Shown here one piece after another: positions 1-60,663 of a stretch of DNA of 64,000 nucleotides. Source of the DNA: an uncultured archaeon (lineage in GTDB: Archaea > Thermoplasmatota > Penumbrarchaeia > JASLWR01); the NCBI GenBank assembly GCA_964342815.1, contig CAYFHS010000002.1, positions 3,079 through 67,078 of the forward strand, in the 5' to 3' direction. Position numbers and translations under genes: made by a program. Under the pieces are notes generated by a model that did no database searches, was not told the DNA's origin, and saw only the letters and a program-made list of their open reading frames with translations. The first letter of the stretch is position 1. Each line of letters begins with the position of its first letter.

Positions 1-304
1 TCTAAACTCACTCTTCAATCCCTTACGATCCCTCTCAGAATTCCGTTGTCCACGACTATTCTCATCCCGTTCGTCATGTAGTTCTCGTATGCTTTTTCCG
101 TTGTCATCTCTCTCAAGGTCATCCCATCACCTCGGTTTCAAGTATCAAAAATGCCTCCGACACCAGCCAGTATCAAGATAGACGCAGGGATCTACCGGAG
201 GCTGATACAAACAAATACGGAAGTATATAAAAGCCTTAACAGAGGGTGAGTGAAAGTAAAATGAAGTCGGATATTTTGTGCTCGATCCCCGTTCTACAAC
301 ATGT

Positions 305-1222
305 CTATTTCTGATCGCTTTCGTACCGCTTTCGGATCGTGTATTTTTTCACCATTCTTACAGGATGATAGGACAATTTTGCCTGTCGGAGGCCGGGCAC
401 TCCAAGGTCCTGCTCTCTATTTATAAACTCGATATCATGCCAATGGTTTTCAGCGAACTGTTGGTTGATGAGAGTATACAATCCTTCGATGCCGGTATTG
501 GCCTTCTCTATGTGGATCACCGCCGTCCTTTCGTTCAGCTTTTCGCCCATAGCAAATGCCTCCATCCTGCCGTCAACCATCACCATCCCGCCTGAAAGGC
601 CCAGTTCACCGAAGTTTTCTAGAGCCTCATTCACCGAACTCCATTCATCCATCAGGTTCATATCCTCATCACAGCGCCTGATATCGCACCACCTTCCAGC
701 AAGTTCACGACATTCCATCAGGTCGTCCCTTTCCATGGGTCGATACTCGAACCCGTATTTTCGTTTGAACCTGTTTATCTGCTGCCTCTTTGAGCTGTAC
801 TTCTTGCCGGCCAACCCGATAAGCGCCGAGCTTTCATACACATAGTCGAACTGGTCGCGAGTCGGTTCCGCGAGGAGAATTTCCACACCCTCGACTTCGG
901 ATAGCAACCGTCCGTCGGCTCTATCTATAAACGGTTCCTTTGATCCCATTTCCTCCTTCAGCCATTCCAAAAGAATCACCACAACGTCTGAACGAGAGGG
1001 TCTGCCCACCGGGGGAAGAGCGTGAAGGTTCCCGCCTACGGAATAGATGATGAGCAGCCAATCATCGTATATGGTCCATTGGAACCCATAATGATCCCGC
1101 CAGATGTATAGGTTCGTGAACGTCAGTTCGGAGGTTTCCGGGAGATAATCTCTGAAGAACCCGTGTATTACATCCCTGTCTAAAAGCTCAACGGGTTTGA
1201 AATATGGAAATTCCGGATACAT
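305..1222 (-). CDS. DUF2156 / phosphatidylglycerol-lysyltransferase C-terminal-like (GNAT/FemAB-fold) domain protein
   Basis: Full ORF of 305 aa. Motifs 'TFTNLYIWR', 'GKKYSSKRQQINRF' and 'KLSYHPVRMVKKYTI' resemble the DUF2156/LPG_synthase_C family. No TM segments. Family assignment from memory only. Confidence 0.5.
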   Translation of the reverse strand: MYPEFPYFKPVELLDRDVIHGFFRDYLPETSELTFTNLYIWRDHYGFQWTIYDDWLLIIYSVGGNLHALPPVGRPSRSDVVVILLEWLKEEMGSKEPFIDRADGRLLSEVEGVEILLAEPTRDQFDYVYESSALIGLAGKKYSSKRQQINRFKRKYGFEYRPMERDDLMECRELAGRWCDIRRCDEDMNLMDEWSSVNEALENFGELGLSGGMVMVDGRMEAFAMGEKLNERTAVIHIEKANTGIEGLYTLINQQFAENHWHDIEFINREQDLGVPGLRQAKLSYHPVRMVKKYTIRKRYESDQK

Positions 1223-1267: not shown

Positions 1268-4222
1268 TTACAGAATACCAGCCTGTATAAGTCCAACAAA
1301 TATGGTCAACAGCATTAGCACCAGAGCGATCCGTCCGAACCATCGGTGAAAGTTCCGAACCAGCTTCTTTTTCGTCTTAACCTTGAACTGTGCCTGCCCC
1401 AATGCAGGTGTGGCTATCAAGAACAACGCTGTGAACGCTCCGAAATAGGTGTGCAGAACACGGAAATGCTCCCCGCTGGATGATCCAACCATGTAGAAAG
1501 CGAAGCCAATACCGGCTGCAGCGGAACTCACCCCGAGAATTCCCAGCAATCTGTGTGTTTTAAGCCACCATTTTCTGCTCTTCTGGGTCCTGGCAAGAAC
1601 GGCTCCCGTGGATAGCATCACGAATCCGATACCCATCAACACCGCGTGAACGGGCCACAGGGACGGTGAGTCCATCTCGGTGTATTTCCCCGTGGCGAGA
1701 TCGAGAGTAACTTTTCCACGCGAACCGCCGTGGGTCATGGTGAAAACGTCGTCATCCCCCGTAGCCCATATGATATCGATGCGACCGGCAGGAGGTATCG
1801 CCTTGTCCATGGAGTCCCCGGTGTCCAGCTTGCGCTTGAACTCGATCACCGTCCTGCCGTTCTTCTCGGTTCCCGCGAAACCTAAAATATCGTCCGTTCC
1901 TCCGAGAGTAAGGTCCTGGGGATGCGGTCCTTTCTCCCCCGTGGAAAAGCAATCCAGTACAGATACCGTTCCGCTGCCGTCCACCCAGCCGATTATCATA
2001 TCCGCATCCTTCATCCTGGCGGAGGGCTCGAATCCCAGGGCCACCCAGCCAGTAGTCCTGGCCGATATGGCCATGCTGATTACATCTCCGTCGATACGCC
2101 AGTATATCGTGTAATGACCGTTGTCGAAGGAAGCCTCGAATGGGTATTCCCCGTTTCCAATGATGCCGTCTACCATCACCCCATCCGCCGTCTTCTCGTA
2201 CCGGACGTTCACGCTGGCCGTGGCGTTGTTTCCGGTGATGTCCGATGCCCGGGCATGGATCGTGTTCGCTCCCTCCGCAAGACTGAGCTCGACGGTCCAG
2301 TTATCCAGCCCCTCGGCATCAATCCAGGCATCATTGTTCACCCTTACTTCCACACTCCTGAGGCCTCGATCATCACTGGCGGTACCACTCACCATAATAT
2401 CTTTTTTAATTATCACGCTGTCATCCGTTGGCGTCACGATGGAGATCACGGGAGGCACCGTGTCCGGGGGTGTGTAGCTTACGTTAACGGATCCCGTAAT
2501 GCTGTTTTCGGAAGCATCCGTTGCACGAATGTAGAGGACGTTGTTTCCTTCTTTGAGGAAAACGTCGGCGTCCCACGTGTCGGTTGCCGTAAGTAGTGTC
2601 CAATCCCCGTCATTTACCCTTATCTCAAGTTTTGATATACCTCCCTCGTCAGTGGCATTTCCACCAAAGGATATGGTTGAATGATCGAAGTTCTGACCCT
2701 CCAACGGGTGTTCTATTGTTATAAGCGGGGGGGCGTTATCCGACACCTCGTAACTTAAGTTCACCGTGTCCGCTGCGATATTGCCTGAGAAATCCGTCGC
2801 TCGTGCTATGATATTGTTCGCCCCCTCCCCCAGGTCCACCACTGCGCTCCACATCTCCTTTCCCTCTGCAAGCTGCCACGCCTCATTATTCACCCTAACG
2901 TGAACGGCGGCCAGTCCTGTATCGTCCGAAGCGTTCCCCCTGACGGTGATAAGGTTTACGTTGAAAACGCTGCCCTCAGAAGGCGCGGATATACCTATCA
3001 CGGGATTGAGCAAGTCGGGGGGTCCGCTTGTATTGTAGGTGACGTTTACCGTGTCCGTCGCCTGGTTTCCGGAGTCGTCGAAGGCCCTTGCTCGTATGTC
3101 GTTATCACCGGGCTCCAGCGAGAGATCCATGCTCCAGTCCTGAGCGCCATCTGCGGGTTCCCAAGAGCCACCGTTGACACTTATCTCTACACGGTCTAGT
3201 AAGGTGTCATCATGAGCCGATCCCGTAACGGTGAGGTCTCCGCTGTAGAAAATATCCCCTTCCCCGGGATACACAATGGTGATGTCGGGAGGAATGCTGT
3301 CCGCAGGTGGACTGTAGGACACGTTCACCACTGTTTCAGCCTGGTTTCCCGATGTATCCAATGCCCTGGCCTCTATCGTGTTGGCACCTTCCGTCAACAT
3401 TATCTGTAAGCTCCAAGTCGAAGTCCCGTCTGCAGTCTGCCACTGCCCGGAATTGAGCCTGAGCGATACCTCGTCCAGCCCCACATCATCATCAGCGGTT
3501 CCGGTAACTTCAATAGAATTATTATTGAAAATCGCACCCTCTGTGGGAGAATCAATTTCCACTGTTGGGGGCGTGGTATCCTCCACTGGTGCGGCCATAT
3601 CTAGAGTCCCACTCCCCTTCGCAACGTGTTTTACAGTGATGGTATCCGTGGCACCAATGGCCCAGATTATATTCATAGTCCCGGTAGATGGGATGGTATT
3701 GTCGTATGAGTCCCCCGTGTCCAGTTTTCGTTCGAACTCCATTGTAGTCACCCCGACGGCTTCAGTTCCCGCATAGTTGATAATGTCATCGGTTCCTCCG
3801 AGAATCGTGTCCGGACTGTGAGGGCCGTAATTCCCGGTGCAATACTGGTCCGAGGTGTCTGGAGTCCCGCCGGAAACCCAGCCGAATACCATGTCCGCGT
3901 CCTTCATTGCAGAACTTGGATCGAAACCTATTGTTACCCATCCAGTGGTCTTCCCGGATATGGCCATAGTTATATTCTCACCTTCTATGATCCAATAAAC
4001 GTTGAAATCACCTCCCCCGAAGGAGGCTTCGTTGGTGTACTCGCCATCGTCCACCACCCCGTCAAGTCCGGCTCTGGTTCCGGTCCGCGATCGTTCGGTA
4101 TCGGTATACTCGACGGAATGGGTTGATAATGAGACCGAAAGAACCATGAGTACCAGTGATAGACCTAAAAAGATGGGCAACACTCTATGGACTGTTATTA
4201 CTTTACTGTTCATAATTTTCAC
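1268..4222 (-). CDS. Membrane protein: N-terminal signal/TM, DOMON-like domain, five Ig-like repeats of about 88 aa, second DOMON-like domain, C-terminal four-helix cytochrome b561-like (di-haem) membrane domain
   Basis: 984-aa ORF. Two paralogous segments ('GWVTIGFDPSSAMKDADMVFGWVSGG' and 'GWVALGFEPSARMKDADMIIGWVDGSG') match the DOMON superfamily pattern. Five tandem repeats with consensus 'PP-I-I--P-EG--F-----V-G-A-DD-GL--V-V-N---W--A-G---W-----L-EG-N-I-ARA-D-SGN'. The C-terminus has four hydrophobic helices, each carrying a conserved His (PVHAVL, KTHRLL, VLHTYF, NFHRWF). Confidence 0.7.
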   Translation of the reverse strand: MKIMNSKVITVHRVLPIFLGLSLVLMVLSVSLSTHSVEYTDTERSRTGTRAGLDGVVDDGEYTNEASFGGGDFNVYWIIEGENITMAISGKTTGWVTIGFDPSSAMKDADMVFGWVSGGTPDTSDQYCTGNYGPHSPDTILGGTDDIINYAGTEAVGVTTMEFERKLDTGDSYDNTIPSTGTMNIIWAIGATDTITVKHVAKGSGTLDMAAPVEDTTPPTVEIDSPTEGAIFNNNSIEVTGTADDDVGLDEVSLRLNSGQWQTADGTSTWSLQIMLTEGANTIEARALDTSGNQAETVVNVSYSPPADSIPPDITIVYPGEGDIFYSGDLTVTGSAHDDTLLDRVEISVNGGSWEPADGAQDWSMDLSLEPGDNDIRARAFDDSGNQATDTVNVTYNTSGPPDLLNPVIGISAPSEGSVFNVNLITVRGNASDDTGLAAVHVRVNNEAWQLAEGKEMWSAVVDLGEGANNIIARATDFSGNIAADTVNLSYEVSDNAPPLITIEHPLEGQNFDHSTISFGGNATDEGGISKLEIRVNDGDWTLLTATDTWDADVFLKEGNNVLYIRATDASENSITGSVNVSYTPPDTVPPVISIVTPTDDSVIIKKDIMVSGTASDDRGLRSVEVRVNNDAWIDAEGLDNWTVELSLAEGANTIHARASDITGNNATASVNVRYEKTADGVMVDGIIGNGEYPFEASFDNGHYTIYWRIDGDVISMAISARTTGWVALGFEPSARMKDADMIIGWVDGSGTVSVLDCFSTGEKGPHPQDLTLGGTDDILGFAGTEKNGRTVIEFKRKLDTGDSMDKAIPPAGRIDIIWATGDDDVFTMTHGGSRGKVTLDLATGKYTEMDSPSLWPVHAVLMGIGFVMLSTGAVLARTQKSRKWWLKTHRLLGILGVSSAAAGIGFAFYMVGSSSGEHFRVLHTYFGAFTALFLIATPALGQAQFKVKTKKKLVRNFHRWFGRIALVLMLLTIFVGLIQAGIL
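2260..3571 (-). repeat. Five tandem Ig-like domain repeats (about 264 nt each) inside the DOMON/cyt-b561 gene
   Basis: Protein-level tandem repeats clearly alignable by eye. Nucleotide identity between units is only moderate. Confidence 0.7.
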
Positions 4223-4674: not shown

Positions 4675-6393
4675 TTGAGCGTGATTAGTAAATCCGAGAT
4701 TTGTCTTGTTATTGTCGTATTGTTTTTCGCAACCGTTTTCATGGGCTGCGTGGACTCTCCCGGGGGCGAGCGGGATCTGAGCCTTGACCTCCACGAGTTT
4801 CAATATGATACCGAAAGCATAAATCTGGCGGCGGACAACGAAGGGAACCTGCATACAATATGGCAAAAGGTCGAAGATGAGAAGATCAAGCTATTCTACA
4901 TCAAGATGGACAATGACGGCGATCCCGTCATGCCCAAGAAATTAGTGTATTCCGCAGACCTTACCCGGCGAATCCAGTACACAGACCCGGCAATTTCCAT
5001 GGATTCCAAAGGAAATGCCCACGTTGTATTCGAGGCAAATAACAACCTTTTCTACTGCAAATTGTCGAATGATGGAAAGATACTGGAAAAACCCTTGCAG
5101 ATCACTCATCGTGGCAGATCCACCGATTCCAATATTGCAGTGGACCTGGAGGATAATCTGAATATCGTCTGGACCAGCTGGGTCACCGGAAAGGCCAGGA
5201 TCTACTACATGAAATTAGATAGCTGCGGGAAGATGCTGATCGACGCAAAGGAAATCAGCGAGGTCCGGTCCTATGACCCAACAATAGTTATGGATTCCAA
5301 GGGCGGGATCCATATCTCCTGGTACTACGAGGACACAGGTGCTTATCCCCTGGGATTATACCTTGTAAAAATGGATCTTCGGGGAAATATCGTTTACGAG
5401 AAGAACATGGCATTTCCAAATGTGGAATTCAGACGGTCCTCAATCGAGCTCATGGTGAATTCGAAAGATCAGACGGGACTGGTGTACACCCTGAACAACC
5501 GCTTGAAGTATTTTCCTGCTGAGCTGTTGGACGGCGAGCATGATGGAGAGTCCTCTTTTGAAGAAGATTTCAGAAGAAAGAGCGACTGTGAGTACTATCT
5601 CGAACTTCCATACTTTACTATCTATAAAAGCTGTTTCATCAATATTACAATGATAAAGGGGGTGCTGGGGCGATGTTCCGGCGATATCCTGCTGAGTCTG
5701 AATGACGGAGAATACACAACGATCGGGAGCTGGTCCTTCGGACAGCTAGGCGAACTTGTGGTAGAACGCATGAAGATCAATGTCACCCAGTATATCACGT
5801 CCGATGGAGTCTACAGAATAAAATTCGAAAAGGACAACGATATATTCGGTGAGATGTCCGATCCCGAAATTCTCAGCGTGAAACTGATCTCGGAGGCTTC
5901 TGAATATGAAGAAACGGAGAATATTATCGGGATGAGCCTTTCGGAGAATTTCGTTCTCGAGCCATCGGTGGCCGTGGACAGCGAGGATTGCAACAACTTT
6001 GTCTGGTACGACGATACGGGCAATCACAGCCAGCTTCACAATCTCAAAACAGACTACTACGGAAATATAATTATGAAGGAGCGGCAGATAACCCTCGAAG
6101 TGGGCCGGCTCTATGACCCGGCAGTGGTCATTGACAAGGGAAACTGTATTCATCTCGTGTGGCTGGACGAGGATGAAGACGACACCAGGACCTTTTACAT
6201 GAAAATGGACGGATACGGAAAGATCATGGTCCCCGCAAGAGAGATAAAGTACGTCGAAAAGGATGAATCCACCTGGTTATTGTACTATATAATGCCCGTA
6301 TTGGTCTGCGTCATCACAGTATCTGTTCTGTTGCTATTACATATACGAAAGATAAGAAAAAATAGGGTGGAATTCACAATCATATTCGAGTGA
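4675..6393 (+). CDS. Membrane-anchored PD40/TolB-like beta-propeller repeat protein (N-terminal signal with Cys, C-terminal TM helix)
   Basis: Shine-Dalgarno 'AAGGAGGT' at 4662-4669, then a TTG/GTG start. N-terminus 'VIVVLFFATVFMGCVDSPGG' is a signal/lipobox-like segment. At least six repeats of the type 'G-hH-vW-----k-YYMKLD--G-------I'. C-terminal TM 'LLYYIMPVLVCVITVSVLLLL'. Start codon uncertain (TTG 4675, GTG 4681). Confidence 0.65.
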   Translation: MSVISKSEICLVIVVLFFATVFMGCVDSPGGERDLSLDLHEFQYDTESINLAADNEGNLHTIWQKVEDEKIKLFYIKMDNDGDPVMPKKLVYSADLTRRIQYTDPAISMDSKGNAHVVFEANNNLFYCKLSNDGKILEKPLQITHRGRSTDSNIAVDLEDNLNIVWTSWVTGKARIYYMKLDSCGKMLIDAKEISEVRSYDPTIVMDSKGGIHISWYYEDTGAYPLGLYLVKMDLRGNIVYEKNMAFPNVEFRRSSIELMVNSKDQTGLVYTLNNRLKYFPAELLDGEHDGESSFEEDFRRKSDCEYYLELPYFTIYKSCFINITMIKGVLGRCSGDILLSLNDGEYTTIGSWSFGQLGELVVERMKINVTQYITSDGVYRIKFEKDNDIFGEMSDPEILSVKLISEASEYEETENIIGMSLSENFVLEPSVAVDSEDCNNFVWYDDTGNHSQLHNLKTDYYGNIIMKERQITLEVGRLYDPAVVIDKGNCIHLVWLDEDEDDTRTFYMKMDGYGKIMVPAREIKYVEKDESTWLLYYIMPVLVCVITVSVLLLLHIRKIRKNRVEFTIIFE

Positions 6394-50295: not shown

Positions 50296-51273
50296 ATGAA
50301 AGCAATCGTATGCTCGAAATACGGGCCTCCGGATGTTCTTCAACTGAAAGAGGTAGAAAAACCCTTTCCAAAGGATAACGAAGTGCTGATAAAGATATAT
50401 GCCACAACAGTAAATCGAACAGACTGCGCAACACTTAGAGCAAAACCGTTCTTCGCAAGATTTTTCACTGGATTGTTCAAACCAAAGAATTCTATTCTCG
50501 GAACCGAATTTGCAGGTAAGATAGAAGCAATTGGAAAGAATGTATCATCTTTTAAGCCCGGCGATAAGGTTTTCGGGTTTAGTGAGAACGGATATGGGTG
50601 TCATGCCCAGTATATGAGAATATCGGAAGATAAAGCGCTGGCAAAAATTCCAAAGGATTTAACATATAAGCAGGCGGCTGCCAGTTCAGAGGGGGCGTGG
50701 TATGCGTATAATTTCATCAATAAAGTTAAGATTAAGCCCGGGCAAAAGGTTCTGGTCAATGGCGCAACGGGAGGAATAGGCTCAGCTGCAGTCCAGTTGT
50801 CAAAATATTTCGGAGCCGAGATCACCGGAGTATGCCAGGGGAAGGATTTTGAATTGGTCAAATCTCTGGGAACGAAGTATTTAATTGATTATTTAAAAGA
50901 GGATTTTACAAAGTCTGATAAAAAATACAATTACATTTTTGACACTGTGGGTAAGAGTTCATTTGGCAAATGCAAATTATTATTGGAACCCGATGGCGTA
51001 TATATTTCATCGGAACTGGGCTCCGGGAGTCAAAATATTTTCCTGGCGCTTTTAACTCCAATATTAAGAGGTAAAAAAGTTAAATTTCCGCTTCCCAAGG
51101 ATTGTAAAGGGACTATACTTCTTATCAAAAAGCTAATTGAGAAGGGAAAATTCAAAGCAGTGATCGATAGAGAATATCCTTTTGAGCAGATAGTAAAGGC
51201 GTTCAAGTATGTAGAAAGCGGACAGAAAGTAGGAAATGTCGTAATAACCGTGGAACATAATGACAAAACCTGA
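50296..51273 (+). CDS. Zn-independent MDR superfamily oxidoreductase (NADPH:quinone reductase-like), paralogue 1
   Basis: 325 aa. '[23 protein letters not shown]' and 'LVNGATGGIGSAAVQLSKYFGAEITGV' form a Rossmann GxGxxG dinucleotide fold. Family-typical C-terminus 'GNVVITV'. Confidence 0.8.
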   Translation: MKAIVCSKYGPPDVLQLKEVEKPFPKDNEVLIKIYATTVNRTDCATLRAKPFFARFFTGLFKPKNSILGTEFAGKIEAIGKNVSSFKPGDKVFGFSENGYGCHAQYMRISEDKALAKIPKDLTYKQAAASSEGAWYAYNFINKVKIKPGQKVLVNGATGGIGSAAVQLSKYFGAEITGVCQGKDFELVKSLGTKYLIDYLKEDFTKSDKKYNYIFDTVGKSSFGKCKLLLEPDGVYISSELGSGSQNIFLALLTPILRGKKVKFPLPKDCKGTILLIKKLIEKGKFKAVIDREYPFEQIVKAFKYVESGQKVGNVVITVEHNDKT

Positions 51274-51287
51274 AAGGACGCAGTACA

Positions 51288-52241
51288 ATGAAAGCAATGG
51301 TATTCAAAAAATACGGATCGCCCGATGTCCTCAGTATCGAAAAGGTGGCCAAACCAAAACCCAAGGACGATGAAGTGCTGATAAAGATACATGCAGCGGC
51401 AATAAACGATTGGGACTGGCATATCTTTAGAGGAAGCATGTTCGTTAACCGTATGATGTTCGGTCTTATAAAGCCCAGAAAACAAACAATAATCGGATGC
51501 GACATATCAGGTGTTGTCGAAGACGTTGGGAAGAATATTAAAAACTTTAAGAAGGACGACGAGGTGTTCGGGGATCTATCTGACAGTGGTTTTGGCGGTT
51601 TTGCAGAATATGTTTCCGCTCCAGAGAATGCCCTGGCAATGAAATCGCGGGAGATGAGCTTCGAGGAAGCGGCGGCCACGCCCCAGGCCGGTCTTCTCGC
51701 CCTCCAGGGATTTCAAAAAGGACAAATAGAGAAAGGGCAGAAGGTGTTGATAAACGGGGCGGGAGGGGGCGTGGGCACCTTCTTCGTGCAGATCGCCAGG
51801 GATTCCGGAGCGGAGCTGACGGGAGTGGACAAAAAGAACAAATTGAAGATGATTAAGTCCATGGGATACCACCAAGTCATCGACTACCGGAAGACGGATT
51901 TCACAAGGACCGGAGAGCGGTATGACCTCATCATCGACAATATGTCCACCCGTTCGTTCCTCGCCTACAAGCGAGCGCTTCGACCCGGTGGAAGATGTTT
52001 ACTGGTCGGTGGAAACCTGGCTTTGATCCTATCTTCTTCAGTACTTGGAAGGTTTGGAAACAGGAAGGTCGGCCTTCTGATGTATCGAACGAACGAAGGG
52101 CTGGATGAGATGACAAAACTATTCGAGGCCGGCAGATTGAAGCCCGTTATCGACAGCACCTACCCGCTGAGTGAGGCCCCTGAAGCTTTTAGGCATTATG
52201 GAAAAGGGGAATTCAAGGGTAAAGTCGTGATAACAGTGTAA
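51288..52241 (+). CDS. MDR superfamily oxidoreductase (quinone reductase-like), paralogue 2
   Basis: 317 aa with 'MKAMVFKKYGSPDVLSIEKVAKP', 'LINGAGGGVGTFFVQIARDSGAELTGV' and 'GKVVITV'. Confidence 0.8.
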   Translation: MKAMVFKKYGSPDVLSIEKVAKPKPKDDEVLIKIHAAAINDWDWHIFRGSMFVNRMMFGLIKPRKQTIIGCDISGVVEDVGKNIKNFKKDDEVFGDLSDSGFGGFAEYVSAPENALAMKSREMSFEEAAATPQAGLLALQGFQKGQIEKGQKVLINGAGGGVGTFFVQIARDSGAELTGVDKKNKLKMIKSMGYHQVIDYRKTDFTRTGERYDLIIDNMSTRSFLAYKRALRPGGRCLLVGGNLALILSSSVLGRFGNRKVGLLMYRTNEGLDEMTKLFEAGRLKPVIDSTYPLSEAPEAFRHYGKGEFKGKVVITV

Positions 52242-52268
52242 CATAATAACGAAATATATGGGATACTT

Positions 52269-53195
52269 ATGAAAGCAATTGTATATCAAAAATATGGTCC
52301 CCCCGATGTTCTTCAGCTCAAAGAGGTAGAAAAACCTATTCCCAAGGACAATGAAATGCTTATTAAAGTATATGCGACAACGGTAACATCCGGTACTCTG
52401 TGGGCTCGAAAGGGCAGCCACCCGGATTCCAAATTATTCACTATCGCGGCGCGATTATATTTTGGTCTCAGAAAACCAAGAAAAACGATACTTGGCTATG
52501 AGCTATCCGGAGTAGTTGAAGCTGTGGGTAAAGATGTAAAACTGTTTAATAAGGGAGATCAGGTCTTTGGAACTGCAACCGGGTTGTGGGCTGGTGCTTA
52601 TGCAGAGTACGTATGTCTGCCTGAAGAATGGAAGCAGGGTGTGGTAGCCAAGAAACCTGCGAATGTGAGTTTTGAGGAAGCCGCCGCCGTTCCTATCGGG
52701 GGTATGACTGCGCTGCATATTCTTAAAAAAGCAAATATCCAAAGCGGACAAAAAATCCTCATCTACGGGGCTTCGGGAAGCGTGGGCACTTATGCGGTAC
52801 AGATTGCCAAGTATTTTGGGGCGGAAGTGACCGGGGTATGCAGTACTTCGAATTTAGAATTAGTTAAATCCATAGGGGCCGATAAAGTAATTGATTACAC
52901 CCGGGAGGATTTCACCCAGGGTCATGAGGTCTATGACGTTGTTTTTGATGCGGTTGGTAAAATCTCCCGCGCGCATGTTAAAAGCTGCCTGAAGAAAAGG
53001 GGGACGTATCTGTCTGTTAAATCACCAACAAGTGAAACGACTGAAAATCTGGCGTACCTCGGAGAGCTTATTGAAGCGGGAAAGATTAAACCAATCATAG
53101 ACAGAAGCTATCCGCTGGAAAAGACTGTCGAGGCTCACGCCTATGTTGAAAAGGGGCACAAAAAGGGGAATGTCGTAATAAATGTGGTAGTATGA
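52269..53195 (+). CDS. MDR superfamily oxidoreductase (quinone reductase-like), paralogue 3
   Basis: 308 aa. The N-terminal 30 aa are almost identical to paralogue 1 ('[39 protein letters not shown]'). '[27 protein letters not shown]'. Confidence 0.8.
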
Positions 53196-53232
53196 TTAAA
53201 AATGTAAATGCGAGCAGGAGGGAGTGCTGGCA

Positions 53233-53706
53233 ATGAAATCATTATTGGTCTTGTTTTCATATCACCACAAAAATACAGAGAAGATCGCCAAGGTCTTCGC
53301 AAAAGTTTTGGATGCAAAAATAAAAACCCCACACCAAATAAAACCTCAAGAGTTAACAAAATATGATCTAATAGGTTTTGGCTCGGGGATATATGGGGCA
53401 AAACACCATAAATCATTACTTGAGCTTGCGGATAAACTACCGCAGGTTACAAACAATATGGCATTCATATTCTCGACCAGTGCCATAATGGGAAAATCCA
53501 AGGTCGCCGAAGATCACTGGCCGCTGCGGGAAAAACTGGAATCTCGTGGTTACACGATCGCCGGTGAATTTAGCTGCAAGGGTTTCAACACAAATAGTTT
53601 TCTGAAATTTTTTGGGGGAATGAACAGGGGCAGACCCAATACTGAAGACCTTAATAATGCTAAAGAGTTTGCTCAGAACATGAAGCAGGACGCGTGCGGC
53701 TCATAG
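53233..53706 (+). CDS. Flavodoxin-like fold protein
   Basis: 'MKSLLVLFSYHHKNTEKIAKVFAKVL...YDLIGFGSGIYGAKHH' matches the flavodoxin pattern (short beta-strand, then FMN-binding-loop-like region). SD 'AGGAGGGA' 9 nt upstream of the ATG at 53233. The GTG at 53224 sits too close to the SD. Confidence 0.6.
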   Translation: MKSLLVLFSYHHKNTEKIAKVFAKVLDAKIKTPHQIKPQELTKYDLIGFGSGIYGAKHHKSLLELADKLPQVTNNMAFIFSTSAIMGKSKVAEDHWPLREKLESRGYTIAGEFSCKGFNTNSFLKFFGGMNRGRPNTEDLNNAKEFAQNMKQDACGS

Positions 53707-58049: not shown

Positions 58050-59408
58050 ATGCCGCCCCCGAAAAAATATCGTCGATCCCTTGTATTTTCTGTTATTGGG
58101 GCCTGTGTGATAGTTATTATAATATTGATAATGAGCCAGGTATTCACTCCTACCGGCTATGATCCTAACACGTGGTCAGACGAGGAACTCGGACCCCCTC
58201 CCTTGAACGTAACGTGGGGTAACGTCGTTCCCCTGAACATAGAAGGTTACGAACCCAGCATCTCTTCGGACTCCCAGGGCGCAATGTACATCACAGGCCA
58301 TAAAAACCTTGAGGAGAGGGATACCTGGGACTACCTTGCTTCATGGTTCGTCATGAGCAAGGATGAAGGCAAAACATGGTATCCGCCCACAGAGCCATTT
58401 CCCAGGGGTGCCATCTGGCAGACCTATCTGGGCGATGAGGGGGATATCGCCGTGGACGCAAACGATAACGTCTATTATGTTGATACCTATCTTCTCGACA
58501 ATCATATTCACGTTTGGGCGGATCAGGGACAGTACCAGTATTCCGTAAGGATCCAGAAGACCACGGGACTGGACGATCGGCCGTGGATAACCGCACAGGG
58601 GAACAATATCGTTCATTATCTGGGAAACAACGGTGTAGAAGTAAACGGTGGGAGATACTGGTATTACCGCTCCACAAACGGTGCCCGCACCTTTACGGCG
58701 GGGGAATCCGTTCCCGGAAACGGATGGGGCCATATAGACGCGGAAAGGGACGGAGACCATGTTTACATTATCTCGGAGAGCAACGTCGGAGGAGAGGCCG
58801 ACATTCGTGTTTACGTAAGCGACGAACAGGGCGCCAGCTGGGATTTTTCCAATCCGGTGGTTGTGGGACACCGGGACGGTCCGGGGCGTCAGTACCCAAT
58901 CATTACAGTGGGAGCCAATGGCGACGTTTGGTGCCTTTGGAACGACGCTTCCAACGGGGTGGAGAATGGCACCCGCGTCTTCGTGGGAAGGAGTACCGAC
59001 TTCGGCCGCAGCTGGGACACATGGGACATAACACCTTTCAAGGGTTTTCTGGACTATCCCACCATCAACGCCGGGCCGGATGGCTCCGTGGCGGTATCAT
59101 TCTACGCCACAAAAGACCTGCCGGTATCCGAAAACAGCGAATGGTACATATACGGGGCCCTGGCACTTAACGCCGGCAGCGGCAATCTATCGTTGAACTT
59201 TTCCATAGCTGACCCGACCCCTGTTTATGTGGGCTCCAATCTTCATGCCCTTCACGATTTTTACGAGATCGTCATCACACCGGATATGGCATTGAACCTT
59301 GCCTATCAGTATTATGTAGGACCTGGAAACGGGGACAGCATGCTCTATTTCGTCAGAGGTATCGTTGAGAACCCCAACCAAGGAGCGGAAGTGATTGACA
59401 GCGGATAA
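58050..59408 (+). CDS. BNR/Asp-box repeat (sialidase-like beta-propeller) protein with N-terminal membrane anchor
   Basis: 452 aa. TM 'LVFSVIGACVIVIIILIM'. Asp-box-like 'SKDEGKTWY', 'STNGARTF', 'SDEQGASWD' and 'STDFGRSWD' (S-x-D-x-G-x-T/S-W pattern). Confidence 0.7.
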   Translation: MPPPKKYRRSLVFSVIGACVIVIIILIMSQVFTPTGYDPNTWSDEELGPPPLNVTWGNVVPLNIEGYEPSISSDSQGAMYITGHKNLEERDTWDYLASWFVMSKDEGKTWYPPTEPFPRGAIWQTYLGDEGDIAVDANDNVYYVDTYLLDNHIHVWADQGQYQYSVRIQKTTGLDDRPWITAQGNNIVHYLGNNGVEVNGGRYWYYRSTNGARTFTAGESVPGNGWGHIDAERDGDHVYIISESNVGGEADIRVYVSDEQGASWDFSNPVVVGHRDGPGRQYPIITVGANGDVWCLWNDASNGVENGTRVFVGRSTDFGRSWDTWDITPFKGFLDYPTINAGPDGSVAVSFYATKDLPVSENSEWYIYGALALNAGSGNLSLNFSIADPTPVYVGSNLHALHDFYEIVITPDMALNLAYQYYVGPGNGDSMLYFVRGIVENPNQGAEVIDSG

Positions 59409-60663
59409 CGGGCTGATGAGAAAAGGATCAAGGAGGGTTTGGCGGACATGGAAATGGGGTTTCTTGATTGCGTTTGTGGTAATGATTGCGGTCTTCATAT
59501 TTGGTTTGAACGTGGAGGTCCAGCATAAAAGGTCCGGAATAAAAGGAGAAGAACCAATAAAATTCTTCGAAACGGACGTGTCTCCGTCAATCGCAGTCGG
59601 TATGAACAGTTATACGGTAAGCATATCCAATGATCGGAAATATACTATTACGTGGGTGAAAATGGAGTTCCGCGGGCCCAACATGCAGGCTCCGAGCCAT
59701 GAGCCCGAGACCCATTCCGATTCCATAGGAGCCGGTGGGGAGACGAGTTATTCTTTCGATATCCCGAAGGGTGCCGAATCCGCTGAGTTCGAACTGACCG
59801 GAGATTCTCTGCCTGGATTTGCCGACATCAATCTTTACGTTAGAGGCTCAAATACAAGTGCTGAATGGTCATCGGAAAGCTCATCGAACGACGAGAACAT
59901 TAGACTGTCAAGCTCGGATATAGAATCAGGTGGATACGGCGCATACACCATTAGCGTCAGGCATGAAGGCGGCGTCCGGTCAGTCTCATACACGCTGAGC
60001 ATATCACTGAGCTACGCCGATCTCGTCCTTTCCCATACACATTCCAACGCTATCCCGCCCGAAGATACATTAAATCTGGACTATATTATAAATCTGGACG
60101 CGGCGCAGGTGGATGAATTGGGGTTTTATATCTCGGCCCGGATCAGACTCCCTGACGGAATGACCATGGAGATACGGAGGGTCTACAGCTCCAGTTGGTC
60201 GGTGCTTGAGGAAGTTACCCCGACACCGGATGAACTTAAGGACTCGGAACCCTGGGGACCTGTGGATACCACCGGTACGGTATCGGGAGTGGCATATGCC
60301 ATTGCAGTTTTAAGCGGGATAGTGCTTTGGGCCCGGCTGCGGTTCACCGAAATGGTCAAACCGCGGTTTATAGGTCCGGTACACTGCTTCATATCACTGA
60401 TCTCCCTTATCCTTGCTGTTGATCACACGGCAATAGCGCTGCAAAAATCCTGGCCTTGGGGGTCTCCCGGAATGTTATTCTCGTACCTTTCCATAGTGAC
60501 GATGTTGGGATTCACCGTTTTTTCATTCTACGACGTTGAAGGAAAGGAATGGCTGGGCAAAAGAAAATGGCGAAAGGTCCACCTGATCCTTACAATACTG
60601 CTTTTCCTGGTCGTGGTTCTCCATATCGGGTTGATGGGCGATCACCTGGGTTTTCTGAAGTGA
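59395..60663 (+). CDS. Membrane protein: N-terminal TM, about 270-aa extracellular domain, C-terminal multi-helix domain with conserved His pairs (possible haem-b-binding, ferric-reductase-like/DUF4405-like)
   Basis: 422 aa. Overlaps the upstream BNR gene by 14 nt. The C-terminal helices carry 'VHCFISLISLILAVDH' and 'KVHLILTILLFLVVVLHIGLM'. Haem binding is inferred, not shown. Confidence 0.5.
   Translation: MTADNGLMRKGSRRVWRTWKWGFLIAFVVMIAVFIFGLNVEVQHKRSGIKGEEPIKFFETDVSPSIAVGMNSYTVSISNDRKYTITWVKMEFRGPNMQAPSHEPETHSDSIGAGGETSYSFDIPKGAESAEFELTGDSLPGFADINLYVRGSNTSAEWSSESSSNDENIRLSSSDIESGGYGAYTISVRHEGGVRSVSYTLSISLSYADLVLSHTHSNAIPPEDTLNLDYIINLDAAQVDELGFYISARIRLPDGMTMEIRRVYSSSWSVLEEVTPTPDELKDSEPWGPVDTTGTVSGVAYAIAVLSGIVLWARLRFTEMVKPRFIGPVHCFISLISLILAVDHTAIALQKSWPWGSPGMLFSYLSIVTMLGFTVFSFYDVEGKEWLGKRKWRKVHLILTILLFLVVVLHIGLMGDHLGFLK

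Follow-up and report, generated by a model that had tools for sequence, protein, structure and literature searches.

The gene and the layout of its product

The window, that is the whole stretch of DNA analysed here, covers 64,000 nucleotides of a contig from an uncultured archaeon of the phylum Thermoplasmatota. One open reading frame on its minus strand (1268..4222) encodes 984 aa when it is read from a GTG codon, and public gene calls place the start at the ATG of codon 4, which gives a protein of 981 aa (1268..4213). An exact-protein look-up with the ATG start found the same 981-aa protein on seven contigs of independent assemblies. The protein has only one ortholog with the same layout (74% identity), and dN/dS values against this ortholog indicate purifying selection on every domain. 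Selection is strongest on the tip: no segment is under tighter constraint than DOMON1 (88.9% identity, dN/dS 0.071), and the signal peptide is the fastest-evolving segment (38% identity, dN/dS 0.81). This is a real archaeal gene for a membrane protein.

The original prediction had read from the letters a DOMON domain, five Ig-like repeats, a second DOMON domain and a cytochrome b561-like domain, and the Pfam scan that it called for placed every one of these above the cut-offs. DOMON (PF03351) is found twice (E=2.5e-61, 205.8 bits against a cut-off of 32.7), Big_7 (PF17957) five times (E=1.5e-41), and Cytochrom_B561 (PF03188) once (E=1.1e-10, 42.3 bits against a cut-off of 23), with aa 858-981 covering positions 1-133 of the 137 in the profile. 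The domain borders in Table 1 are taken from our own HMMs. The signal peptide is probably cleaved. The ectodomain is acidic and carries 11 glycosylation sequons.

Table 1. Parts of the open reading frame and their positions in the window
Feature	Residues	Positions	Strand	Basis and remarks
Whole ORF		1268..4222	-	984 aa from GTG; 981 aa from ATG at 4213; stop codon 1268-1270
N-terminal signal peptide	1-37	4112..4222	-	Hydropathy; hydrophobic core 7-37
DOMON1, distal tip	50-211	3590..4075	-	Pfam, own HMMs, alignment; candidate haem-b ligands M106 and H199
Ig-like repeat 1 (Big_7)	214-305	3308..3583	-	Pfam, own HMMs
Ig-like repeat 2 (Big_7)	307-398	3029..3304	-	Pfam, own HMMs
Ig-like repeat 3 (Big_7)	402-493	2744..3019	-	Pfam, own HMMs
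Ig-like repeat 4 (Big_7)	494-585	2468..2743	-	Pfam, own HMMs
Ig-like repeat 5 (Big_7)	586-677	2192..2467	-	Pfam, own HMMs
DOMON2, membrane-proximal	681-844	1691..2182	-	Pfam, own HMMs, model, Foldseek; candidate haem-b ligands M737 and H831
Minimal four-helix cytochrome b561 core	851-984	1271..1672	-	Pfam, model, Foldseek, profile alignment

Scans of the window for tRNA and Rfam families were empty. A search for conserved partner genes found none, and the neighbours of the gene are not conserved beside the ortholog. The window is rich in giant adhesin-like surface proteins, and a response regulator is encoded outside it, a few genes downstream of the query.

Candidate haem domains, the membrane core and the stalk

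The two DOMON domains share 54% identity (E=6e-60), and each contains the motif MKDADM that had been noticed at the outset (aa 106 and aa 737). In a comparison of DOMON relatives, DOMON1 groups with poly-DOMON repeats and the nearest relative of DOMON2 is the DOMON of the paralog P0074; the idea that DOMON1 arose by recent duplication within the protein was rejected. Across 142 DOMON domains, DOMON1 included, the Met is kept in 140, the C-terminal His likewise in 140 and the His of a GPH motif in 141; D110 and H135 of DOMON1 and D741 and H767 of DOMON2 are also invariant. The Met-to-His separation is 94 residues in the query, as against the pair M90/H174 proposed as haem ligands in the DOMON of Arabidopsis HYP1 (PMC10784544). 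Conservation and this analogy make the Met/His pair candidate axial ligands of haem b. An alignment to the solved Met-ligated cytochrome domain 6jt6 was obtained in a profile search at a non-significant E=1.1. Foldseek matched the DOMON part of the model to the DOMON of DBH (4zel, 3.6e-8), to the cellobiose dehydrogenase (CDH) cytochrome (1pl3/1d7c), to EbdC (2ivf_C) and to NxrC (7b04_C), of which the last three are haem-b domains. The DBH DOMON is the best match by structure and by profile (6.8e-13 with the diverse family profile), and it has Glu at the position of the invariant Met.

The C-terminal bundle is a b561 fold by profile and by model, with four His residues at predicted haem-ligand positions. 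The AlphaFold2 model of aa 680-984 (pLDDT 91.4) contains the four transmembrane (TM) helices with one His each that had been predicted, namely an outer pair of H859 (TM1) and H924 (TM3) and an inner pair of H890 (TM2) and H959 (TM4); it shows the core alone and not the six TM helices of eukaryotic-type b561, which has a cytoplasmic ascorbate site as well. Single-sequence searches against PDB sequences, with the whole protein or with its b561 part, returned nothing useful, and the likeness to solved eukaryotic b561 is detectable by profile only: the family profile reached 5zle and 4o6y at 6e-6, and in these alignments each of the four His falls on a haem-ligand His of Dcytb (5zle) and of plant b561 (4o6y). 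The same structures were found by Foldseek with the helical part (4o6y/4o7g, 141 columns, rmsd 3.0; Dcytb 5zle). The original prediction had made itself depend on the His spacing, which is 31/34/35 in the query, fits b561 and compares with 34/33/36 in HYP1; mutating b561 His residues of HYP1 abolished electron transport (PMC10784544). These four His and a fifth, H919 in the outer loop, are invariant in all 25 members of the family alignment; the TM3 motif VLHTYFG around H924 resembles SLHSW of b561, and a basic cytoplasmic stretch, KWWLKTHR, is also conserved. The ferric reductase core that had been offered as an alternative to b561 is not borne out, as PF01794 (FRE/NOX/YedZ) scores 12.4 bits against a cut-off of 28 (E=0.17). 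By the positive-inside rule, H890/H959 lie near the cytoplasm and H859/H924 near the outside, DOMON2 is outside and ends six residues before TM1, and the C-terminus is four residues past TM4.

Between the two DOMON domains stands a stalk of five Pro-linked Big_7 domains without a cofactor site. The five repeats were seen correctly in the original prediction, and the length of 435 aa given there becomes 464 aa by domain borders. The stalk would indeed hold a redox domain off the membrane, at about 20 nm when it is extended and not at the tens of nanometres first suggested. It is a cofactor-free spacer and probably a stiff rod. Electrons cannot run along it because the Ig domains carry no cofactor, and with the stalk extended the DOMON haems would be about 20 nm apart, far past the range of electron tunnelling; therefore there is no continuous wire, and to get from the proximal DOMON to the distal one an electron needs bending of the stalk, a partner in trans or a diffusible mediator. 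A multi-haem c-type conduit was also rejected, since the whole protein has only two Cys residues (C128 and C758) and the CxxCH motif for attachment of haem c occurs nowhere in it. Most likely the haems would be b-type and non-covalently bound, judging from the residues kept and from the analogous proteins. The word conduit in the original prediction is thus lost, and its electron-transfer interpretation is only partly supported.

Relatives in Archaea and Bacteria

The analysis brought out a large prokaryotic family in which a stripped-down four-helix core is combined with modular extracellular extensions. At E<=1e-30 it has 870 representatives, mainly simple DOMON-b561 proteins, and it also includes chains of up to 12 DOMON domains and Ig-stalk proteins tipped by a domain that weakly resembles superoxide reductase (SOR). 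Members are spread mostly over anaerobes, and poly-DOMON chains and soluble DOMON proteins are present in related genomes. Several relatives have EB_dh Pfam matches and others have DOMON fused to the ferritin-like DUF2202. To our knowledge, experimental work on DOMON-b561 proteins has been done only in plants and animals, on ascorbate-driven ferric reductases. Our literature searches for prokaryotic or archaeal DOMON-b561 proteins found no description and no haem, redox or expression data.

The query is best described as an Ig5-DOMON-b561 chassis that has a DOMON in place of the SOR-like tip. Paralogs of the P0074 type carry the SOR-like head with the signature AHxPS...HYI...CNxGG, followed by the Ig stalk, DOMON and b561; the query and P0074/L004 are 52% identical, and the rest of the chassis is common to them. 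P0067, like the query, has a DOMON at the head position, and neither contains the signature. The number of spacer domains in paralogs with this putative redox tip ranges from 0 to 5. In the SOR-like head, His, His, His and Cys are conserved, and weak Desulfoferrodoxin/SOR-like Pfam matches occur in 14 of the 16 members (best 7.9e-5). Its fold matches include SoxZ and many superoxide reductases, with generic Ig folds scoring similarly, and no SOR was found when its sequence profile was compared with PDB sequences. A haem-c site considered in the head of P0078 was dismissed, the motif there being CxCH and not CxxCH.

The Thermococcaceae have relatives in which DOMON and the 4-TM part form a split pair, and this pair sits among genes for Oxidored_molyb, AhpC-TSA, rubrerythrin, FUR and ferritin. 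Genes for rubrerythrin, a peroxiredoxin-like protein, a Mo-oxidoreductase, Fur and ferritin also adjoin DOMON genes at three other loci (L016, L030 and L024), so that the association with stress genes is seen in only 4 of about 24 loci. We take the Thermococcaceae to lack haem synthesis and quinones; if this is correct, the cofactor of the family might not be haem, or the haem might be scavenged.

A proposed outward electron route and competing roles

We read the query as a membrane-anchored protein with four b-type haems, a minimal prokaryotic CYBDOM, that would carry electrons one at a time from the cell interior to the outer surface, and we give this reading a probability of about 0.55. Outward single-electron transfer is the established function of the plant CYBDOM proteins Arabidopsis HYP1 and CRR (PMC10784544, PMC10784552). 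The query has their layout, with DOMON2 (681-844) outside and directly N-terminal of the predicted di-haem b561 core (851-984); its four-His spacing matches that of HYP1, and its DOMON has a Met and a C-terminal His at the places of the proposed ligands. AIR12 is a soluble relative of these plant proteins. Unlike HYP1 and CRR, the query has the 4-TM core alone, a second DOMON past five Ig domains and the extra invariant His of the outer loop. We know of no ascorbate donor in archaea and would not expect one.

In the proposed route, a reductant of the cytoplasm or membrane would reduce the inner haem (H890/H959), from which the electron would pass to the outer haem (H859/H924) and on to a Met/His haem in DOMON2. 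This last transfer is modelled on the one proposed for HYP1 between the outer b561 haem and the DOMON haem (PMC10784544). The stalk would probably lift DOMON1 through or above a glycosylated surface layer, where DOMON1 would have to be reduced in trans or by collision, through hinge bending, neighbouring DOMON proteins or small mediators, and would then reduce an external oxidant. The cytochrome domain of cellobiose dehydrogenase (1d7b, 1pl3) is a precedent for a tethered, mobile electron shuttle of DOMON type to an external acceptor, and it has the beta-sandwich fold and the Met/His haem b that is a candidate in the query. However, it belongs to a flavoenzyme that fungi secrete and is tethered by a short flexible linker, whereas here a long and probably stiff Ig rod is the tether and a membrane cytochrome would supply the electrons. 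Animal SDR2/FRRS1, a ferric-chelate reductase of reeler-DOMON-b561 layout, likewise has an extra extracellular domain N-terminal of the DOMON-b561 unit, which is however a reeler beside the DOMON and not a second DOMON separated by a stalk. In prokaryotes, the haem-b subunits of type II DMSO reductases (EbdC 2ivf_C, NxrC 7b04_C) are extracytoplasmic DOMON-like domains that match by fold and profile, but they are parts of soluble molybdoenzyme complexes and have no b561 partner.

The family context points to detoxification or reduction of oxidants at the surface (oxygen species, oxidised metals) as at least as likely as respiration. The same haem chemistry could accordingly serve extracytoplasmic defence of an anaerobe against oxidative stress, with the b561-DOMON base exporting reducing power and the tip, away from the membrane, removing reactive oxygen species or re-reducing surface components that have become oxidised. 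This alternative concerns the physiological role and overlaps with our preferred reading; we regard it as possible, with the odds against it. It draws on the SOR-like heads on the same chassis and their fold matches, on the DOMON-DUF2202 fusions, on the redox and stress genes beside the split pair and at the three other loci, and on the prevalence of the family in anaerobes. Yet the tip of the query is a DOMON and not an SOR-like head, the SOR-like assignment is itself weak, no stress genes lie next to the query within the window, and the association covers few of the loci.

As a tentative speculation, the family may provide long-range extracellular electron transfer without c-type cytochromes in Thermoplasmatota and in further archaea and bacteria, most of them anaerobes. 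DOMON domains would be haem-b beads on minimal b561 cores, strung into poly-DOMON wires of up to 12 units, and Ig stalks would raise exchangeable redox tips, either DOMON or an SOR-like metal domain, clear of the surface layer; the highly conserved tip DOMON of the query would dock in trans with DOMON domains of neighbouring wires or cells, giving a haem-b redox network on the surface or an electron link between cells. Such a job, carrying electrons across a thick envelope to external partners, is that of the multi-haem c-type conduits (Mtr/Omc and the S-layer-fused cytochromes of ANME), from which the query differs in having no CxxCH, predicted b-type haems, unrelated domain families and no continuous haem chain.

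A flow in the inward direction is doubtful. Here the tip would take electrons from an outside donor such as Fe(II), reduced humics or a partner cell, and b561 would hand them on, into the membrane or the cytoplasm. A two-haem b561 bundle has no built-in direction, the fairly high potential usual for Met/His haems of DOMON type, as in CDH and EbdC, suits the accepting of electrons, and conservation is highest in the tip, as a specific docking surface would lead one to expect. All characterised DOMON-b561 proteins (HYP1/CRR) nevertheless export electrons, no quinone site or oxidase partner is evident, and the stalk gap is equally a problem in this direction.

It is very unlikely that the DOMON domains bind ligands without any redox function, as sugar-binding, CBM9-like or adhesive modules of a surface adhesin or receptor to which the helical bundle is a mere anchor. 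The superfamily includes sugar binders, the best match (DBH) is a DOMON without haem, and the window is full of adhesin-like proteins; but CBM9, named at the outset as the identity that would speak against a redox role, appears neither in the Pfam output (E<=1) nor among the top 50 fold matches, DBH has Glu in place of the invariant Met, and neither the Met/His invariance nor the four-His core is needed in an anchor. Scarcely credible is a redox sensor, as the original prediction had also suggested, or a haem-scavenging receptor. A haem-binding tip so distant from the cell might catch ligands and then signal or hand haem over, and a response regulator is encoded downstream; but the protein ends four residues past TM4 without a cytoplasmic output domain, its neighbours are not conserved beside the ortholog and no transporter is linked.

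The query is a rare new layout of a protein type known in plants and animals. Should haem binding be confirmed, archaea and anaerobic bacteria without multi-haem c-type cytochromes would gain a second, b-haem route for electrons outward, which would be relevant to metal and humic reduction, to the oxygen tolerance of anaerobes and to syntrophy. The query raises the question how electrons get past a 20-nm spacer that has no cofactors, and it offers a clean test case, with a single membrane core, a proximal and a distal predicted haem domain at a fixed distance, and paralogs in which this chassis has another tip. The same layout is also found in a distant protein (P0216), with fn3 domains as spacers instead of Ig.

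Domain layout and the b561-type core

The gene is a 984-codon open reading frame on the minus strand (window 1268..4222). Public gene calls start it at the ATG of codon 4, giving 981 aa. Seven independently assembled contigs encode exactly this protein amid the same neighbouring genes; our look-up found no exact record of a version starting at GTG. The Pfam scan assigned two DOMON domains (E=2.5e-61; 205.8 bits, cut-off 32.7), five Big_7 Ig-like repeats (E=1.5e-41) and Cytochrom_B561 (E=1.1e-10; 42.3 bits, cut-off 23; profile positions 1–133 of 137), and an NCBIfam scan recognized only the Ig repeats. Together with custom-built HMMs, from which the domain borders were taken, this bears out the originally predicted order of DOMON, five Ig, DOMON and b561. 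The "MKDADM" loops predicted in both DOMONs lie at aa 106 and 737, and the two domains share 54% identity (E=6e-60). The Ig repeats are linked by short Pro-rich connectors, and the stalk, put at 435 aa in the original prediction, measures 464 aa by domain borders.

Domain borders (custom HMMs) and divergence from the orthologous DNA locus L001 (Nei-Gojobori dN/dS)
Feature	Position (aa)	aa identity	dN/dS
Signal peptide		38%	0.81
DOMON1	50-211	88.9%	0.07
Ig repeat 1	214-305		
Ig repeat 2	307-398		
Ig repeat 3	402-493		
Ig repeat 4	494-585		
Ig repeat 5	586-677		
Ig1-Ig5		66-77%	0.16-0.30
DOMON2	681-844	78%	0.17
b561	851-984	78%	0.12

For aa 680-984, AlphaFold2 run on 25 family sequences gave a confident model (pLDDT 91.4, pTM 0.75) in which a beta-sandwich leads into exactly four long helices. 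In a Foldseek search of the PDB the helices match plant cytochrome b561 (4o6y/4o7g, 141 columns, rmsd 3.0) and human Dcytb (5zle). Single-sequence searches of PDB sequences with the protein or its b561 part gave no useful match; the family profile matches 5zle and 4o6y at E about 6e-6, with H859, H890, H924 and H959 on the four haem-ligand histidines and "VLHTYFG" on the b561 "SLHSW" motif. The four transmembrane helices with one conserved histidine each are thus of the expected b561 type. All 25 aligned relatives keep these histidines, a WW pair and a fifth His in the outer loop (H919). The b561 spacing is kept, at 31/34/35 residues against 34/33/36 in HYP1, an Arabidopsis protein of the DOMON plus cytochrome b561 fusion type (CYBDOM), where H211/H278 are assigned to the outer and H245/H314 to the inner haem, and where mutation of the outer pair abolishes electron transport (PMC10784544). 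K/R-rich loops after TM1 and TM3 (QKSRKW and VKTK, with flanking K/R) place DOMON2 and the C-terminus outside, with H859/H924 as outer and H890/H959 as inner pair. The bundle is a b561 core of four helices that lacks the two helices flanking it in eukaryotic b561, and an outward DOMON is seated on it. A ferric-reductase core had been named as an alternative, and we reject it since the Ferric_reduct match in the Pfam scan is below significance. A c-type cytochrome conduit is likewise dismissed, as the whole protein holds only two Cys and no CxxCH.

Candidate haem ligands in the DOMON domains

The modelled sandwich matches the DBH DOMON (4zel, 3.6e-8) and the haem-b domains of cellobiose dehydrogenase (CDH; 1pl3 and 1d7c), ethylbenzene dehydrogenase (2ivf_C) and nitrite oxidoreductase (7b04_C) by Foldseek. 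CBM9, the carbohydrate-binding family whose assignment would have spoken against redox domains, is absent from these PDB fold matches, and we set that reading aside. Across an alignment of 142 DOMON domains taken from relatives, including DOMON1 of the present protein, the Met of the MKDADM loop and a His about 94 residues further on are each kept in 140; the "GPH" His occurs in 141, and the loop Asp has no exceptions. Conserved candidate ligands are thus present in both DOMONs, and the distal one, beyond the five Ig domains, retains the pair as M106 and H199. In position and spacing the pair corresponds to the Met/His ligation of haem in the CDH cytochrome domain. The same holds for M90/H174, the pair proposed for the HYP1 DOMON (PMC10784544). 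A diverse DOMON profile matches NxrC (0.0033) and DBH (6.8e-13), the latter with Glu in place of the Met; a non-significant alignment (E=1.1) to an AA8 cytochrome domain puts the Met on its "GGSMRNN" loop. Met/His haem ligation is a candidate assignment well supported by conservation.

Judged at the sequence level, the protein passes as a DOMON-b561 (CYBDOM-type) protein. It differs from eukaryotic CYBDOM proteins in having only the four-helix core, in presumably using a different electron donor, and in adding a second, distal DOMON on an Ig stalk.

A prokaryotic family with differing tips

The DOMON2-b561 fragment finds about 25 simple DOMON-b561 proteins (320-350 aa, 41-50% identity), soluble DOMON-only proteins and DUF2202-DOMON fusions. 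The family profile, searched against 1.84 billion representatives, matches 870 proteins at E<=1e-30 and 5,193 at E<=1e-10. Members of the DOMON subfamily come from Thermoplasmatota, Thermococcaceae, Methanothrix, Hadarchaeota and Asgard archaea as well as from Caldisericota, Dehalococcoidia and Clostridia, which are mostly anaerobes. Simple DOMON-b561 proteins make up most members. Others carry tandem DOMONs (two, three, six, seven, up to twelve) ending in b561, among them P0068-P0073 and P0079 with 5-7 and the 2531-aa P0108 with 12, or DOMONs set apart by 100-250-aa spacers (150-250 aa in P0183 and P0144). The giant many-DOMON proteins, of which P0195 reaches 4632 aa, keep Met/His in nearly all repeats, and in many the C-terminus is again the four-helix core; we regard these proteins as candidate haem-b chains. 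Our literature search found no description of such chains or of the prokaryotic DOMON-b561 members.

In a further group, a head of about 95 aa directly follows the signal peptide; behind it come 0 to 5 Ig spacers and a single DOMON, and the protein ends in b561 or in one TM anchor (P0074, P0075, P0081-P0089, P0003, P0007, P0022, P0026, P0090, P0076 and P0077; e.g. L004:1562-4252). The head (consensus AHxPS...VTIxH...tHYI...CNxGG) takes the position of DOMON1. It has invariant His, His and Cys, with a His at the predicted mature N-terminus in 14/16 members, and weak Desulfoferrodoxin (superoxide reductase, SOR) Pfam matches, also in 14/16 (best 7.9e-5). It models as a seven-strand sandwich (pLDDT 97) whose fold matches include SoxZ, many superoxide reductases and generic Ig domains; its sequence profile gave no SOR match in the PDB. 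Possibly the head forms a metal centre outside the cell, SOR-like or His-brace-like in kind; we treat this as a lead rather than a finding.

The full DOMON-Ig5-DOMON-b561 layout is common only to the present protein and its ortholog P0067 (981 aa, 74% identity, full coverage). The next relatives carry the head-Ig4/5-DOMON chassis (P0074/L004 at 52%; P0075, P0078, P0081-P0089). DOMON2 is closest to the proximal DOMONs of these proteins (P0074, 62%), and DOMON1 to internal repeats of poly-DOMON proteins (53-58%). As their nearest relatives differ, a recent internal duplication is rejected as the origin of DOMON1, and the protein looks like a head-Ig-DOMON-b561 chassis with its tip swapped for a DOMON. 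A 983-aa protein from the representative library, P0216, combines DOMON, 4 x fn3, DOMON and b561 (about 30% identity in the DOMON-b561 part), showing that the layout arose with another spacer type too; its lineage is possibly eukaryotic.

Every domain is under purifying selection, and the tip DOMON1 is the most constrained part. The Ig stalk behaves as a conserved-length spacer, both orthologs being 981 aa, and the N-terminal segment evolves like a cleaved signal peptide.

Proposed electron path and gene neighbourhoods

A cytoplasmic or membrane donor would reduce the inner haem, and via the outer haem the electron would reach that of DOMON2, following the CYBDOM scheme. The proposed electron conduit may hold for this membrane-to-DOMON2 part and fails as a direct route to DOMON1. 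The Ig stalk has no cofactor motif, and from textbook Ig-domain dimensions its predicted "tens of nanometres" becomes about 18-22 nm if extended, which excludes direct tunnelling between the DOMONs. The observation behind the original prediction is confirmed, and its interpretation partly supported. DOMON1 would have to be reached in one of three ways: the stalk bends, other DOMON proteins act in trans, or small diffusible mediators carry the electrons; poly-DOMON and simple forms occur together in one related MAG (L009 and L015). Since paralogs carry another putative redox head at the tip, on 0 to 5 spacers, we argue that the tip may be a redox effector fed by the base. External oxidants are the favoured target of reduction because of stress-gene neighbourhoods and SOR-like and ferritin-like fusions; transfer to acceptors farther away would also fit the long DOMON chains. 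The unexplained electron gap between the two DOMONs, and the opening onto a large unstudied prokaryotic family, are the main points of interest of the protein.

A Thermococcaceae MAG encodes the unit in two pieces, a DOMON lipoprotein and, next to it, a four-helix protein of 117 aa in which every helix bears a His (L010:6829-12450; such pairs also in L014 and L016). The pair lies among Oxidored_molyb (MsrP-like), AhpC-TSA (peroxiredoxin), rubrerythrin, FUR and ferritin genes, and neighbours of this kind were seen at three further loci. Thermococcales are not known to have haem synthesis or quinones, and if they truly lack these, the cofactor of the family, or its source, needs explaining. Directly downstream of P0083 (head-Ig4-DOMON-b561) is a gene for a 709-aa protein that combines EB_dh (haem-b DOMON-like), CARDB and Big_7 domains (L033:9630-11759, L034:7276-9405) and may serve as an extracellular redox partner with a stalk of its own.

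The gene under study appears to stand alone, with no conserved neighbours beside the ortholog or the other family members examined. TFIIB adjoins the 74% ortholog; here, archaeal ribosomal protein genes and RpoD lie just outside the window, and the neighbours within it include an LPG_synthase_C homolog, a CoA-transferase, hydantoinase A/B and many giant surface proteins. The window also encodes a housekeeping M24 peptidase with a 100% identical database counterpart; its named relatives are from Methanomassiliicoccales and Thermoplasmata archaeon MAGs. A divergent gene (4675-6393, plus strand) encodes a 572-aa membrane-anchored protein with no Pfam family, whose repeated "D..GN.H.VW"-type motifs suggest a beta-propeller; it adjoins the gene in the identical contigs and not beside the ortholog. 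A dense run of C-terminally anchored giants (11653-45771; 1362, 1426, 1190, 1995, 695, 1135 and 986 aa) carries NosD/beta-helix, PKD, GLUG, FG-GAP/ASPIC and Big_9 domains; two end in zinc-ribbon-like cytoplasmic tails, and G+C falls to 0.34-0.41 at 12-16 kb. Three tandem paralogous Zn-ADH/quinone-oxidoreductase-like genes (50296-53706, plus strand; 325, 317 and 308 aa) are followed by a flavodoxin-like gene. Overlapping the end of a frame with a weak BNR-like match (58050-59408, plus strand), a 422-aa frame (59395-60663, plus strand) with an N-terminal anchor, a beta-rich ectodomain and C-terminal His-bearing TM helices (weak DUF4405 match, 3e-5, below cut-off) may encode a second protein in the window combining an ectodomain with a membrane-cytochrome-like part.
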